Of a stretch of DNA of 1,930 nt, positions 1 through 1,834 are shown one piece after another; the first letter of the stretch is position 1, and the number at the start of each line of letters is the position of its first letter. The notes beneath the pieces are model-generated. The model saw nothing but the letters and a program-made list of their open reading frames with translations. It searched no databases and was not told the DNA's origin. Origin of the DNA: Escherichia coli (GTDB lineage Bacteria; Pseudomonadota; Gammaproteobacteria; Enterobacterales; Enterobacteriaceae); the NCBI RefSeq assembly GCF_003334785.1, contig NZ_QOWV01000058.1. One strand, written 5' to 3'. The position numbers and the translations under genes were made by a program.

Positions 1-123
1 AACCCCCCGTTCAGCCCGACCGCTGCGCCTTATCCGGTAACTATCGTCTTGAGTCCAACCCGGTAAGACACGACTTATCGCCACTGGCAGCAGCCATTGG
101 TAACTGATTTAGAGGAGTTTGTC

Positions 124-153
124 TTGAAGTTATGCACCTGTTAAGGCTAAACT
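124..153 (+). promoter_or_regulatory. RNA I promoter
   Basis: -35 TTGAAG at 124-129, 18-nt spacer, -10 TAAACT at 148-153, start near 160. Same arrangement as the remembered pMB1/p15A RNA I promoter. Confidence 0.7.
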
Positions 154-159
154 GAAAGA

Positions 160-267
160 ACAGATTTTGGTGACTGCGCTCCTCCAAGCCAGTTACCTTG
201 GTTCAAAGAGTTGGTAGCTCAGCGAACCTTGAGAAAACCACCGTTGGTAGCGGTGGTTTTTCTTTAT
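160..267 (+). ncRNA. RNAI: Antisense copy-number control RNA I (about 108 nt) of a ColE1-family replicon
   Basis: Starts ACAGATTTTGGTGACTGCGCT as in ColE1-family RNA I. It ends in a stem-loop ACCACCG-ttggtag-CGGTGGT followed by a T-run, and the length matches the canonical 108 nt. Confidence 0.85.
237..266 (+). terminator. RNA I intrinsic terminator (third stem-loop plus U-tract)
   Basis: Perfect 7-bp stem ACCACCG (237-243) / CGGTGGT (251-257) with a 7-nt loop, immediately followed by TTTTTCTTT. Confidence 0.75.
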
Positions 268-274
268 TTATGAG

Positions 275-303
275 ATGATGAATCAATCGGTCTATCAAGT
301 CAA
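275..303 (-). promoter_or_regulatory. RNA II (replication primer) promoter
   Basis: On the - strand: -35 TTGACT (+ coords 298-303), 17-nt spacer, -10 CATCAT (+ coords 275-280), predicted start near 268. It sits where the RNA II promoter lies in ColE1-type replicons. Confidence 0.6.
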
Positions 304-323
304 CGAACAGCTATTCCGTTGAC
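299..323. repeat. 7-bp perfect inverted repeat GTCAACG-(11 nt)-CGTTGAC spanning the -35 elements of two divergent promoters
   Basis: GTCAACG at 299-305 and its reverse complement CGTTGAC at 317-323, read directly from the sequence. Confidence 0.8.
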
Positions 324-347
324 AAAAAAACAAGATCTGTACATATT
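319..347 (+). promoter_or_regulatory. Candidate sigma70 promoter for the toxin-antitoxin operon
   Basis: -35 TTGACA at 319-324, 17-nt spacer, -10 CATATT at 342-347, flanked by A7/A6 tracts. A weak SD-like ACGGA lies at 359-363, 8 nt before the ATG at 372. An in-frame stop at 279-281 with no intervening start codon fixes 372 as the start. Confidence 0.5.
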
Positions 348-371
348 CAAAAAAAACAACGGATTGACCCA

Positions 372-1412
372 ATGGCACAGAACCCGTTTAAAGCACTAAA
401 TATCAATATTGACAAGATTGAGTCTGCTCTGACGCAGAATGGCGTCACAAACTATTCCTCTAATGTAAAAAACGAAAGAGAAACTCACATATCTGGCACA
501 TATAAAGGAATAGACTTCTTAATAAAACTAATGCCATCAGGCGGAAATACCACTATCGGAAGAGCGTCTGGGCAAAATAACACTTACTTTGATGAAATCG
601 CCTTGATTATAAAAGAAAACTGTTTGTATTCAGACACAAAGAACTTTGAATACACCATTCCAAAATTCAGTGATGATGACAGGGCAAATCTATTTGAATT
701 TCTTTCTGAAGAGGGGATAACAATAACAGAAGATAATAATAACGATCCTAATTGTAAACACCAATATATTATGACCACCAGCAATGGTGACAGGGTCAGG
801 GCAAAAATTTACAAGCGCGGCTCTATTCAATTCCAAGGAAAATACCTTCAAATCGCGAGTTTGATTAACGATTTCATGTGCTCAATACTAAACATGAAAG
901 AGATTGTCGAACAAAAAAATAAAGAATTTAATGTTGACATAAAAAAAGAAACTATTGAGTCCGAGTTGCATAGCAAACTACCAAAAAGCATCGATAAAAT
1001 CCATGAAGATATCAAAAAACAGCTATCATGCTCGCTAATAATGAAAAAAATAGATGTCGAAATGGAAGATTACTCAACATACTGCTTCTCTGCATTAAGA
1101 GCCATAGAAGGCTTTATATATCAAATACTTAATGATGTTTGCAATCCATCATCATCAAAGAACCTTGGCGAATACTTCACTGAAAACAAACCCAAATATA
1201 TAATCAGAGAAATACACCAAGAAACTATAAATGGTGAAATAGCGGAAGTTTTGTGTGAATGCTACACTTACTGGCATGAGAACAGGCATGGTTTGTTTCA
1301 TATGAAACCAGGAATAGCTGACACGAAGACAATTAACAAATTAGAATCAATCGCAATCATCGATACCGTTTGCCAATTAATAGATGGTGGCGTAGCTAGG
1401 TTGAAATTATGA
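372..1412 (+). CDS. rnlA: RnlA/LsoA-family endoribonuclease toxin (RNase LS-like, HEPN-type), 346 aa
   Basis: Long ORF starting at the first ATG after an in-frame stop. C-terminal motif ENRHGLFHM (R305-x4-H310) fits the HEPN R-[NHD]-x3-H signature. LRAIEG (aa 242-247), GEYF (aa 266-269) and the R-H-x-LFHM block match my recollection of RnlA/LsoA. A downstream 126-aa partner overlaps by ATGA, as in rnlAB/lsoAB. Family call is from memory, not a database search. Confidence 0.7.
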   Translation: MAQNPFKALNINIDKIESALTQNGVTNYSSNVKNERETHISGTYKGIDFLIKLMPSGGNTTIGRASGQNNTYFDEIALIIKENCLYSDTKNFEYTIPKFSDDDRANLFEFLSEEGITITEDNNNDPNCKHQYIMTTSNGDRVRAKIYKRGSIQFQGKYLQIASLINDFMCSILNMKEIVEQKNKEFNVDIKKETIESELHSKLPKSIDKIHEDIKKQLSCSLIMKKIDVEMEDYSTYCFSALRAIEGFIYQILNDVCNPSSSKNLGEYFTENKPKYIIREIHQETINGEIAEVLCECYTYWHENRHGLFHMKPGIADTKTINKLESIAIIDTVCQLIDGGVARLKL

Positions 1413-1789
1413 AAAAAGATAAAAAATATCAAATAGAAGCAATAAAAAATAAAGATAAAACTTTATTTATTGTCTATGCTACTGATATTTATAGCCCGAG
1501 CGAATTTTTCTCAAAAATCGAATCCGACTTGAAGAAAAAGAAAAGCAAGGGTGATGTTTTTTTTGATTTAATAATTCCTAACGGTGGAAAAAAAGATCGT
1601 TACGTCTATACGTCATTTAATGGCGAGAAGTTTTCAAGTTACACATTAAACAAAGTTACGAAAACTGATGAATATAATGATTTATCTGAGCTCTCGGCTT
1701 CGTTCTTTAAAAAAAACTTTGATAAGATCAACGTAAACCTTCTATCCAAAGCCACATCATTTGCTTTGAAAAAAGGCATTCCAATATAA
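1409..1789 (+). CDS. rnlB: RnlB/LsoB-family antitoxin, 126 aa, lysine-rich
   Basis: ATG at 1409 overlaps the upstream TGA (ATGA), with an AGG SD-like element at 1398-1400. Size and position match the RnlB/LsoB antitoxin encoded downstream of its toxin. The segment GDVFFDLIIPNGG resembles a remembered RnlB segment. No MNT (GSxxxG/DxD) or HTH motif is evident. Confidence 0.6.
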   Translation: MKKDKKYQIEAIKNKDKTLFIVYATDIYSPSEFFSKIESDLKKKKSKGDVFFDLIIPNGGKKDRYVYTSFNGEKFSSYTLNKVTKTDEYNDLSELSASFFKKNFDKINVNLLSKATSFALKKGIPI

Positions 1790-1805
1790 TATCAAGCCAG
1801 AAGAC

Positions 1806-1834
1806 ATTTACCATAACGTCTCATTACGCGCACC
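1806..1834 (-). other. cer-like XerC/XerD site-specific recombination core (plasmid multimer resolution site)
   Basis: The - strand reads GGTGCGCGTAA-TGAGACG-TTATGGTAAAT. The right arm is identical to the ColE1 cer XerD arm TTATGGTAAAT, and the left arm differs from the dif XerC arm GGTGCGCATAA at one position. The central region is 7 bp. Accessory (ArgR/PepA) sequences would lie at higher coordinates and run off the window. Confidence 0.6.

Follow-up and report, generated by a model that had tools for sequence, protein, structure and literature searches.

Which replicon controls a plasmid whose RNA I gene resembles one classical origin at its 5' end and another at its 3' end? The question is raised by positions 160 to 267 of a 1,930-nt stretch of Escherichia coli DNA (contig NZ_QOWV01000058.1; the whole stretch is hereafter called the window). 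A preliminary description, made from the letters of the sequence, had recognised there a mosaic RNA I with p15A-like loops I and II and a pMB1/ColE1-like terminal hairpin, and had proposed that the replicon may have its own compatibility behaviour. In the mode of action assumed here, RNA I would pair with the 5' end of the primer RNA II, first by loop-loop kissing and next through its 5' tail, and this pairing would block primer maturation and so set copy number and incompatibility.

Reference sequences

The reference set consisted of ColE1 (NC_001371), CloDF13 (NC_002119), the pMB1-origin vector pCAPs, and a 4,245-bp p15A-origin plasmid carrying catA1 and tet(C), which was taken as pACYC184 by its size and markers; RSF1030 was outside this set. 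Sequences of the p15A and pMB1 origins were used as BLAST queries only (100% identity over 321 and 407 nt, respectively), and the reference sequences were read from the matched records. In the genome scan, many matches came from pMB1 vector DNA within genomes that are unrelated.

Identity and distribution of the plasmid

The window is 100% identical to pOSAK1 of E. coli O157:H7 Sakai. Uniform identity to a single known replicon, which by the preliminary description would speak against a mosaic, does exist, as the control region (window 97-376) is identical to that of NTP16 from Salmonella Typhimurium (NC_002090.1) at 280/280 positions, but NTP16 carries the same replicon, and the mosaic pattern relative to the classical incompatibility types stands. 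The lsoAB module is likewise 99.8% identical between NTP16 and pOSAK1. The identical sequence was found in at least 76 independent plasmid records, NTP16 included, of isolates obtained from lettuce as well as from humans, cattle, pigs, and poultry, and pOSAK1-type sequence was present in 67 of 5,426 complete E. coli genomes. Given this number of identical independent records, the pOSAK1 sequence is real and stable. Since p15A and pMB1 origins are ubiquitous laboratory contaminants and the genome scan gave many pMB1 vector matches, one might suspect that the composite arose as an artefact of assembly or cloning, or as a chimera with vector DNA, but the independent records, the complete genomes, the occurrence in NTP16, and the many differences from both vector origins leave this explanation a negligible probability.

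The gene rop is annotated on plasmids identical to pOSAK1, and mobA on pOSAK1 and near-identical copies. With its control region, mobA, and a cer homologue with cargo outside it, pOSAK1 belongs to the NTP16 group (Moran & Hall 2017), or MOBRNA type 5 (Branger et al. 2019), as defined via PMC6807383 and PMC9282650. Positions 160-267 are thus the RNA I of a known ColE1-type replicon common to pOSAK1 and NTP16, and its patchwork is ordinary for this plasmid family.

RNA I, RNA II, and neighbouring genes

The features of the window are listed in Table 1. The Rfam model RNAI (RF00106) matched 162-265 on the plus strand over its full length (model 1-102/102) with 83.7 bits (gathering score 47; E = 1.9e-15). 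The 108-nt RNA folds into a 9-nt tail and three stem-loops (SL1 to SL3) at -42.3 kcal/mol (z = -4.9, equalled by 0/200 shuffles), and the minimum-energy and centroid folds agree on this layout; the ViennaRNA minimum-energy fold shrinks the UUGGUAG loops to 3-nt GGU, and the 7-nt loops given here follow the Rfam consensus structure and the literature. A terminator-like site followed by a T-run was detected at 233-261. The position antisense to RNA II is indicated by a promoter-like site on the minus strand (303..275) and by the alignment with pMB1/ColE1 replicons through the origin region (91-99%). By its Rfam score, its length, its tail and hairpin layout, and this antisense position, ~550 bp from the origin and with the candidate RNA II promoter just past its 3' end, the element is a ColE1-type RNA I. 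The sole other Rfam match, rnk_pseudo (22 bits; gathering score 55; E = 0.78), lies over the terminator hairpin and was rejected as a chance match.

Table 1 Features of the window, with promoters and transcript ends as predicted
Feature	Position	Strand	Basis
RNA II primer, 5' 269 nt in window (predicted)	1..269	-	promoter position and homology to pMB1/ColE1/p15A
RNA II internal part, pMB1/ColE1-type block	1..104	-	alignment, breakpoint test
p15A-type block with putative RNA I promoter	105..159	+	alignment
RNA I (antisense inhibitor of primer RNA II)	160..267	+	Rfam RF00106, fold
5' tail, single-stranded, ACAGAUUUU	160..168	+	unpaired in both folds
SL1, loop CCUCCAA (p15A type)	169..197	+	alignment, Rfam and fold
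SL2, loop UUGGUAG, p15A-type arms	200..228	+	alignment
Probable crossover interval GGTTCAAAGAG in SL2 5' arm	200..210	.	breakpoint test, BLAST
SL3, also intrinsic terminator; loop UUGGUAG in upper part 237-259	231..264	+	alignment, terminator scan
Candidate RNA II promoter	275..303	-	promoter scan
Candidate lsoA promoter, TTGACA-17-CATATT	319..347	+	promoter scan
lsoA, toxin (mRNA endoribonuclease) of LsoA/LsoB	372..1412	+	346-aa ORF; RefSeq annotation of identical plasmids
lsoB, antitoxin	1409..1789	+	126-aa ORF; annotation
cer-like XerCD core site, GGTGCGCGTAA-TGAGACG-TTATGGTAAAT	1806..1834	-	homology to ColE1 cer

The 5' end of RNA I at 160 was placed by homology to ColE1/pMB1 (ACAGUAUUU). 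The putative RNA I promoter (-35 TTGAAG at 124-129, 18-nt spacer, -10 TAAACT at 148-153) was positioned via the alignment columns of pMB1/ColE1, and its hexamers have 8/12 consensus matches, which is under the reporting threshold of the scanner; the placement also follows the RNA I promoter of ColE1. For RNA II, the candidate promoter (-35 TTGACT at 303-298, 17-nt spacer, -10 CATCAT at 280-275) would give a start at ~269, from which 13 nt lead to CCACC, as in ColE1, and nucleotides 1 to ~110 of the predicted transcript would be complementary to RNA I. Its hexamers are unchanged in four rnlAB relatives (see below) with 7-8 substitutions elsewhere in the MAFFT alignment, a weak argument in its favour. 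To the left, the RNA II block runs on past the window and reaches the replication origin after another ~285 bp.

The candidate lsoA promoter is divergent from that of RNA II, with 15 bp between the -35 elements, and the rnlAB relatives preserve both of its hexamers. A search of the interval between the two promoters for operator-like inverted repeats gave no more than two weak 9-nt pairs. At the DNA level, lsoA is 84-85% identical to rnlA-family genes of a sister lineage, and lsoB 84-86% to its counterparts.

Mosaic relative to the classical replicons

The strings quoted in the preliminary description were found in the window as quoted, i.e., GGTGACTGCGCTCCTCCAAGCCAGTTACC at 169-197, GGTTCAAAGAGTTGGTAGCTCAG at 200-222, and ACCACCGTTGGTAGCGGTGGT at 237-257, and the alignments bore out the mosaic that had been drawn from them. 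RNA I is not identical throughout to the p15A incompatibility type, to which SL1 matches at 29/29 and SL2 at 28/29 positions, the tail at 7/9, and the top of SL3 (237-259) at 14/23. Neither does it match the ColE1/pMB1 type throughout, the identity being 24/30 in SL1, which has a different loop, 18/29 in SL2, and 23/23 (ColE1) or 22/23 (pMB1) in the top of SL3. Loop II, UUGGUAG, is common to pOSAK1, p15A, ColE1, and pMB1. The 5' tail differs at 2/9 positions both from p15A (ACAAGUUUU) and from ColE1/pMB1. The pMB1/ColE1-like character that had been ascribed to the terminal hairpin held for its upper 23 nt, which are those of ColE1 and differ from pMB1 by a single base (loop T vs C), but not for the lower stem (229-236 and 260-267), which has no good match to any reference and is lineage-specific. 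Overall, RNA I is 83% identical to p15A, 74-75% to ColE1/pMB1, and 61% to CloDF13, and its set of three stem-loops equals that of none of these four replicons.

The flanks are similarly uneven. Positions 1-97 match pMB1 at 96/97, ColE1 at 93/97, and p15A at 87/97, and the origin-side 466 bp of the full pOSAK1 sequence are 91% identical to pMB1/ColE1 and 68% to p15A. Positions 98-159, by comparison, match p15A at 56/62 vs pMB1 at 41/85, and this region is without a ~25-nt block that pMB1 and ColE1 carry. With pMB1 and p15A as parents, the switch was placed at 104/105 (chi2 = 85.3; 0/10,000 permutations). Downstream of RNA I, the identity of 268-345 to every reference is 29-38%, and the RNA II promoter region, at 29-36%, is unrelated to that of p15A, ColE1, pMB1, and CloDF13.

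These identities would suit an exchange between SL2 and SL3, within the pOSAK1 lineage, in which a p15A-type plasmid recombined directly with one of the ColE1/pMB1 type, an origin that the preliminary description implied by having a p15A-type RNA I acquire a pMB1/ColE1 terminal hairpin. In addition to the near-perfect agreement of SL1 and SL2 with p15A and of the SL3 top with ColE1, a maximum chi-square test confined to RNA I, with p15A and ColE1 as the two parents, located a switch between 234 and 240 (chi2 = 21.5; 0/10,000 permutations). Against such a cross, the resemblance to ColE1/pMB1 does not extend to the lower stem of SL3, to the 3' tail, or to the RNA II promoter region, and the order SL2-SL3-promoter is already present in diverged rnlAB plasmids of Hafnia, Klebsiella, and E. 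coli. A Pantoea plasmid also has near-identical SL2-SL3, and the closest backbone relatives, p8_MLI121 and pO26_4, break off at 210 and not at 234-240. We therefore regard this origin as improbable. As the rnlAB plasmids share the SL2-SL3 junction while their toxin-antitoxin genes are no more than 84-86% identical to lsoAB, the junction is old, and the combination of p15A-type SL2 and ColE1-type SL3 predates pOSAK1; what is specific to pOSAK1 is the junction at 199-211.

A junction inside SL2

Two groups of natural plasmids match pOSAK1 on opposite sides of the 5' arm of SL2. On the backbone side, p8_MLI121 (NZ_CP117015.1) is 99.0% identical to window-oriented pOSAK1 over 1-210 and 98.5% over 1806-3306, and unrelated between; pO26_4 is 97.6% identical over 1-210, 91% from 1805, and 93% over the origin-side 2842-3306. 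BLAST similarity to both plasmids ends at 210. The RNA I promoter block (105-159) is 99-100% identical in p8_MLI121 and pO26_4, and the tail and SL1 are identical. On the other side, the rnlAB plasmids are 60% identical to pOSAK1 over 105-199, 91-93% over 200-267, 90-91% over 268-371, and 84-86% in the toxin-antitoxin genes, and SL2 of the Hafnia plasmid is identical to that of pOSAK1.

With p8_MLI121 and K. aerogenes pNTT31XS-2k as parents, which stand in as relatives of the actual ones, the maximum chi-square breakpoint fell at 199-211 (chi2 = 117.6; 0/10,000 permutations), where 199 is the last backbone-specific and 211 the first module-specific site, and the same breakpoint was obtained with pO26_4 as backbone parent (chi2 = 123.4; 0/10,000 permutations); in the breakpoint tests stem sites co-vary, which leaves the informative sites partly dependent on one another, and the gaps lie where the MAFFT alignment puts them. 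At the far end, pOSAK1 becomes similar again to p8_MLI121, pO26_4, and p12689-3 precisely at 1805/1806 (at 1806 for p12689-3), and these three diverge from it directly outside the XerD arm; the cer-like site is the right-hand boundary of the exchanged module.

We conclude, with a probability of about 0.8, that RNA I is a composite in which one crossover in the conserved 5' arm of SL2 (200-210) joined an NTP16-group backbone to an lsoAB module. The backbone would have supplied rop, mobA/nikA, the pMB1-like origin, and the p15A-like RNA I promoter with SL1, and the module, which ends at the cer-like Xer site (1806), what remains of SL2 together with SL3, an RNA II promoter of its own, and lsoAB. 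As a single stretch of DNA encodes both RNA I and RNA II, such a chimera stays perfectly self-complementary, and SL2 is intact. No direct donor of the 211-1805 module was present in the plasmid collection, in which identity to the module is bimodal, i.e., at least 99% (pOSAK1 family) or 80-90% (sister lineage). Either direction of the exchange would be compatible with the data.

A pattern of this kind might also be sought in vertical descent without any recombination in RNA I, with unequal conservation of its parts, the SL3 top and the UUGGUAG loops being ancestral and under strong selection and the p15A SL3 derived. The survey of natural RNA I genes offers some ground for this, since the SL3 top CCACCGTTGGTAGCGGTGG was the commonest natural form, shared by 17 distinct variants of RNA I whose SL1 loops are of many kinds, and the p15A-type SL3 was limited to one SL1/SL2 type; these counts apply to a biased sample, as the search pattern demanded loop II GTTGGTAGCTC and more plasmids were added for their resemblance to pOSAK1 (pO26_4, p8_MLI121, and p34514-6 lack this loop II and were extracted via a shorter anchor). 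Yet the identity to p8_MLI121, 99% over 105-199, falls in a step to 60% over 200-267, beyond which similarity is undetectable, the rnlAB lineage has the mirror-image step, and the switch from pMB1 to p15A at 104/105 is equally sharp. Because unequal conservation gives no reciprocal step changes, vertical descent is disfavoured, and we consider it an unlikely account of RNA I. At the SL2/SL3 junction, ancestral retention in the module lineage is compatible with the crossover explanation.

Compatibility

That the pOSAK1 replicon has a compatibility of its own, as the preliminary description had proposed, is plausible in view of the co-residence with a p15A-like plasmid given below. We infer that this RNA I would be fully active only on its own RNA II, with at most partial cross-inhibition of p15A and ColE1/pMB1, because it combines a p15A-type loop I with ColE1-type loops II and III and a tail of its own. 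Genome assemblies provide natural instances of co-residence: one Salmonella isolate holds a pOSAK1-type and a p15A-like plasmid together, although the p15A-like partner differs by one base in loop II as well, which confounds an attribution to SL3, and three isolates each hold two ColE1-type plasmids that share one stem-loop and differ in the others. In directed evolution, loops were found to matter, yet loop differences alone failed to predict compatibility (bioRxiv 10.1101/2021.11.25.470029).

Implications

A patchwork RNA I is common in the ColE1-type plasmid family, and the pOSAK1/NTP16 replicon was already known. The composite cleanly illustrates that control regions of the ColE1 family are put together from stem-loop modules that can be exchanged for one another, with an exchange junction that would lie inside the antisense RNA gene and be tied to the gain of a phage-defence toxin-antitoxin cassette beside a Xer site. 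If this linkage of cassette and junction were general, it would help to explain how a single cell can hold many related small plasmids together. As the RNA I is none of p15A, ColE1/pMB1, and CloDF13, typing and compatibility prediction by resemblance could mislead. E. coli O157:H7 and Salmonella commonly carry plasmids of the pOSAK1/NTP16 type; in practice the finding has modest value, and the understanding of RNA I action is unchanged.

More tentatively, and with rather less chance of being right than wrong, the cargo slot of the NTP16 group could be taken to extend past the RNA II promoter and ~60 nt into the RNA I/RNA II overlap, in which case a swap of cargo would also give the plasmid a new specificity of copy-number control and incompatibility. 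Any cargo module (lsoAB, Abi, retron, resistance genes) would then come with an RNA II promoter and SL3 of its own and with a portion of SL2, the exchange using the Xer site at one end and, at the other, homologous recombination in the conserved SL1/SL2 sequences. At least four distinct SL2-SL3 right halves were seen attached to the p15A-type SL1. Sister plasmids with a common origin, tail, and SL1 could in that case coexist, as p12689-2 and p12689-3 do. An extension of the cargo slot into RNA I may have been described previously.

Comparison with known systems

The NTP16 group, or MOBRNA type 5, comprises small NikA-encoding ColE1-type plasmids, of which pOSAK1 is a member, and has the layout seen in pOSAK1, with a conserved rop-mobA(nikA)-origin part and variable segments beside the multimer resolution site. 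NTP16 itself has a replicon without differences from pOSAK1 and additionally carries blaTEM and IS26-aph(3')-Ia insertions.

Among the backbone relatives, p8_MLI121 and pO26_4/p12689-2 (NC_014543.1, NZ_CP074985.1) share with pOSAK1 the backbone, from which a part is missing in pO26_4, as well as the tail, SL1, and the cer-bounded cargo slot. They differ from 211 on, where they have loop II CGCCAA, a p15A-like SL3 variant, a different RNA II promoter region, and other cargo (an Abi gene, or mph(A)/IS26). In the rnlAB plasmids (Hafnia NZ_CP084667.1, K. aerogenes pNTT31XS-2k, E. coli NZ_CP081780.1, and Salmonella pCFSAN004025.5), the features from SL2 onwards follow the order of pOSAK1, with SL3 and its lower stem, next the RNA II promoter region, an lsoA-type promoter, and finally the toxin-antitoxin pair. 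In SL1 (loop CUGCGAA), in the tail, and in the RNA I promoter block these plasmids have sequences of their own, and their origin-proximal region is p15A-like and not pMB1-like.

The p15A RNA I, as in pACYC184, is alike in the promoter block, in SL1 with loop CCUCCAA, and in SL2 with loop UUGGUAG. The top of SL3 is CCGCCCUGCAAGGCGG in p15A and CCACCGUUGGUAGCGGUGG in pOSAK1, the RNA II promoter regions are unrelated, and the origin-proximal 570 bp of pOSAK1 are pMB1-like. ColE1/pMB1 resemble pOSAK1 in loop II, in upper SL3, and in the origin-proximal RNA II body and origin (91-99% identical), and differ in the loop and stem of SL1, the arms of SL2, the tail (7/9), the lower SL3 stem, and the ~25-nt block upstream of the RNA I promoter, which is absent in pOSAK1, and in that the RNA II promoter of pOSAK1 is non-canonical. 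The cer core of ColE1, GGTGCGTACAA-TTAAGGGA-TTATGGTAAAT, is homologous to the site in pOSAK1, and the accessory sequence is similar.

Reference replicons and searches

RNA I, the antisense inhibitor of the primer RNA II, was compared with ColE1 (NC_001371), CloDF13 (NC_002119), pMB1-origin vectors and p15A, the last represented by a 4,245-bp catA1+tet(C) plasmid (its size and markers identify it as pACYC184) and by a naturally occurring plasmid of 2,318 bp that has the same control region. Vector-type references were located by BLAST with p15A and pMB1 origin queries, both of which were 100% identical to database records. The whole replicon of full-length pOSAK1 was aligned to the references, and species-representative genomes were scanned for a motif common to p15A, ColE1, pMB1 and pOSAK1. 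A search of complete E. coli genomes turned up plasmids with 99% identity to window positions 105-210 and similarity ending there. An annotated rop (locus L005, 2082-2270; locus L055, 91-279) is present on naturally occurring Salmonella plasmids of 2,318 bp that match the p15A origin of pACYC184 at 100% in the control region. Vectors derived from p15A are usually said to be without rop.

Identity of the replicon

Across its full length the window matches pOSAK1 of E. coli O157:H7 Sakai (AB011548.2, 830-2759, minus strand) at 100%, as it does dozens of further plasmids of 3,306 bp and 3,319 bp. It starts midway through a ColE1-type replicon and extends across lsoA and lsoB into the region past lsoB. 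Its control region (97-376) matches the classical Salmonella plasmid NTP16 (NC_002090.1) at 280/280 positions; the replicon has therefore been in databases for decades. pOSAK1 belongs to the NTP16 group, and LsoA/B is present in 10/48 family members (Branger et al.). The complete window also occurs at 100% identity inside larger plasmids (NZ_CP063706.1, 95.7 kb; two of 14-20 kb; two of 7.5-8.3 kb), so that the small replicon also exists within cointegrates or derivatives loaded with transposons, NTP16 being an example of the latter.

Over the RNA I/RNA II region, RefSeq annotates short CDSs as "replication initiation protein" or "hypothetical protein" (window 41-187, minus-strand ORF; L043, 50-193; L045, 1041-1184; L047, 300-413; L050, i.e., pO26_4, 2227-2340). 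Since ColE1-type replicons are not known to need a Rep protein, these are probably spurious ORF calls on non-coding RNA genes.

RNA I and the flanking promoters

The element at 160-267 is a genuine RNA I of the ColE1 type. It matches the Rfam family RNAI (RF00106) at 162-265 on the plus strand with 83.7 bits (gathering score 47), and its 108 nt fold with a 9-nt tail ahead of three stem-loops, SL1 to SL3 (z = -4.9; 0/200 shuffles as good). Loop I is CCUCCAA, as in p15A; loop II is UUGGUAG, common to p15A, ColE1 and pMB1; loop III is UUGGUAG, as in ColE1, and reads CUGGUAG in pMB1, this C for U at its first position being the single difference between pMB1 and ColE1 RNA I. Loops II (211-217) and III (244-250) thus share one heptamer, as in ColE1. 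The tail is ACAGAUUUU, two bases away from that of p15A and likewise from that of ColE1. Tomizawa is said to have reported in 1984 that the 5' tail drives full duplex formation once the loops have made contact.

Features of the control region and its surroundings (window coordinates)
Feature	Position	Strand	Basis or description
Putative RNA I promoter	124-129, 148-153		TTGAAG and TAAACT, start at 160; placed by ColE1/pMB1 alignment
SL1	169-197	plus	fold
SL2	200-228	plus	fold
SL3	231-264	plus	fold; scores as intrinsic terminator with the T-run after it
Candidate RNA II promoter	303..275	minus	promoter-like site, TTGACT-17-CATCAT
Candidate lsoA promoter	319-347	plus	promoter-like site, divergent from candidate RNA II promoter
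lsoA	372-1412		ORF and annotation of identical plasmids
lsoB	1409-1789		ORF and annotation of identical plasmids
cer-like XerCD core site	1806-1834	minus	GGTGCGCGTAA-TGAGACG-TTATGGTAAAT; homologous to ColE1 cer

An RNA II start near 269 would keep the ColE1 spacing to the CCACC stem. The hexamers of the candidate RNA II and lsoA promoters are unchanged in four diverged relatives with 7-8 substitutions elsewhere (MAFFT alignment), which lends weak support to both predictions. The -35 elements of these divergent candidates (275-347) lie just 15 bp from each other; should LsoB/LsoA autoregulate at the lsoA promoter, primer transcription and copy number could be affected. No convincing operator repeat was found in this interval, which offers no more than a TGTACA palindrome on the lsoA -10.

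Mosaic structure of RNA I and the origin

The preliminary description had taken RNA I for a mosaic of p15A-like loops I and II with a pMB1/ColE1-like terminal hairpin, and the alignments bear this out, with two refinements. SL1 is identical to p15A at 29/29 positions (24/30 for both ColE1 and pMB1) and SL2 at 28/29 (18/29 for both), and the top of SL3 (237-259) matches ColE1 at 23/23, pMB1 at 22/23 and p15A at 14/23; identity to CloDF13 is 61% across the whole RNA I. With p15A and ColE1 as parents, maximum chi-square over RNA I only placed the switch between 234 and 240, with 0/10,000 permutations reaching the observed statistic. The likeness of the terminal hairpin holds for upper SL3 only, which is exactly ColE1 and one loop base off pMB1; none of the references is a good match for the lower stem and 3' tail.

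Beyond RNA I, the origin region is pMB1/ColE1-like up to position 104 (1-97, 96/97 to pMB1), and the 466 bp left of the window are 91% identical to pMB1/ColE1 vs 68% to p15A. From 105 to about 230 the sequence is p15A-like and is missing the ~25-nt block found in pMB1 and ColE1 upstream of the RNA I promoter; the switch from pMB1 to p15A falls at 104/105 (chi2 = 85.3; 0/10,000 permutations). Downstream of RNA I, ColE1, p15A, pMB1 and CloDF13 have a conserved RNA II promoter, whereas the equivalent stretch of pOSAK1 (268-345) is unrelated to all four (29-36% identity).

Distribution of the terminal hairpin and its module

The motif scan yielded 35 loci, many of them pMB1 vector contamination and the remainder natural enterobacterial plasmids. 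Exact pMB1/pUC-type or p15A-type origins (L008, L009, L012, L013, L019, L020, L022, L025, L027, L031, L036 and L039) were seen in genome assemblies from, among others, Streptomyces, Paracoccus, Nitrospira, Methylobacterium and Mycoplasma (synthetic), and are almost certainly cloning-vector contamination or engineered constructs. Among the scan loci and the plasmids fetched later, 17 distinct RNA I variants, with many different SL1 loops, have the SL3 top CCACCGTTGGTAGCGGTGG, and p15A-type SL3 is confined to RNA I with p15A-type SL1 and SL2 arms. A Pantoea eucrina plasmid (L033) combines ColE1-type SL1 and p15A-type SL2 with an SL3 nearly that of pOSAK1, lower stem included.

BLAST with 200-345 gave full-stretch matches at 91-93% in plasmids of Hafnia (NZ_CP084667.1), Klebsiella (K. 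aerogenes pNTT31XS-2k), E. coli (NZ_CP081780.1) and Salmonella (pCFSAN004025.5). RnlA/RnlB-family genes adjoin the stretch in at least 3/4 of those fetched, hereafter rnlAB plasmids. Their identity to pOSAK1 is 91-93% in SL2-SL3, 90-91% in the promoter region, 84-86% in the toxin-antitoxin genes and only 60% over 105-199; their origin side is p15A-like. Because these diverged plasmids carry both, the junction of p15A-type SL2 with ColE1-type SL3 and the non-canonical candidate RNA II promoter are old within the module lineage and did not originate in pOSAK1.

Probable crossover within SL2

With pOSAK1 numbered as a circle in the orientation of the window, p8_MLI121 shows 98.5% identity to it over 1806-3306 and 99.0% over 1-210, and nothing similar from 211 to 1805; pO26_4 is 97.6% identical over 1-210, and similarity returns at 1805 in pO26_4 and at 1806 in p12689-3. 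All three share tail and SL1 with pOSAK1. Beyond SL1, p8_MLI121 and pO26_4 differ, having CGCCAA as loop II and a p15A-like variant of SL3, and p12689-3 is fully p15A-type in SL2-SL3. Taking p8_MLI121 and the K. aerogenes rnlAB plasmid as parents puts the breakpoint between 199 and 211 (chi2 = 117.6; 0/10,000 permutations), an interval that is the 11-nt SL2 5' arm, GGTTCAAAGAG, identical in backbone and module lineages.

The most economical description of these alignments is that an NTP16-group backbone, already bearing the older pMB1/p15A junction at 104/105, is joined in SL2 to an lsoAB module bringing SL3 and the RNA II promoter; either side may have replaced the other. SL2 is intact because the crossover falls in the arm common to both lineages, and RNA I and RNA II stay exactly complementary by construction. 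No direct module donor was found in the plasmid collection, in which module identity is either at least 99% or 80-90%.

Compatibility

RNA I binds nascent RNA II via loop-loop contacts and so keeps it from forming the RNA-DNA hybrid needed to prime replication; the RNA I-RNA II complex is stabilised by Rop (PMC8683028; bioRxiv 10.1101/2021.11.25.470029). Because the loop set is mixed p15A/ColE1 and the tail differs from both, an incompatibility behaviour of its own is plausible for pOSAK1 RNA I. Three natural cases of co-residence were confirmed by sequence: (a) Salmonella Senftenberg CVM 34514, a pOSAK1-type plasmid together with a p15A-like plasmid of identical SL1, the latter with one base different in loop II, p15A SL3 and p15A tail; (b) E. 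coli 12689, p12689-2 (pO26_4 type) and p12689-3 (p15A type), with SL1 identical and SL2 and SL3 different; and (c) Salmonella Senftenberg CFSAN004025, an rnlAB-lineage plasmid alongside one whose RNA I is identical to that of p15A, with only SL2 shared. This suggests that one stem-loop in common does not prevent coexistence, in the sense of co-residence and not stability, with case (a) confounded by loop II. In directed evolution, loop differences were important, yet insufficient for predicting compatibility (bioRxiv 10.1101/2021.11.25.470029).

Cargo slot and comparison with ColE1 plasmids

The right-hand boundary at 1805/1806 abuts the cer homologue. The ColE1 cer core is GGTGCGTACAA-TTAAGGGA-TTATGGTAAAT, with accessory sequence similar to that of the pOSAK1 site. 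In pOSAK1, pO26_4, p8_MLI121 and p12689-3, divergence begins directly outside the XerD arm; the Xer site therefore marks one edge of a cargo slot reaching from SL2 (window 211-1805). The slot holds lsoAB in pOSAK1, an Abi-family gene in pO26_4, a retron (reverse transcriptase and Se72-family effector) in p12689-3 and mph(A)/IS26 in p8_MLI121. Phage-defence functions make up 3/4 of these cargos.

ColE1 plasmids generally have a conserved region starting at RNA II and a variable cargo region (PMC5864857). In this family the variable segment appears to take in the RNA II promoter as well as ~60 nt of the RNA I/RNA II overlap, which may already be known; no such statement was found in the literature covered, two primary papers falling outside its scope. 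The replicon itself has long been known, its kind is thoroughly understood, and shuffling of modules in this way is common among its relatives in the family.
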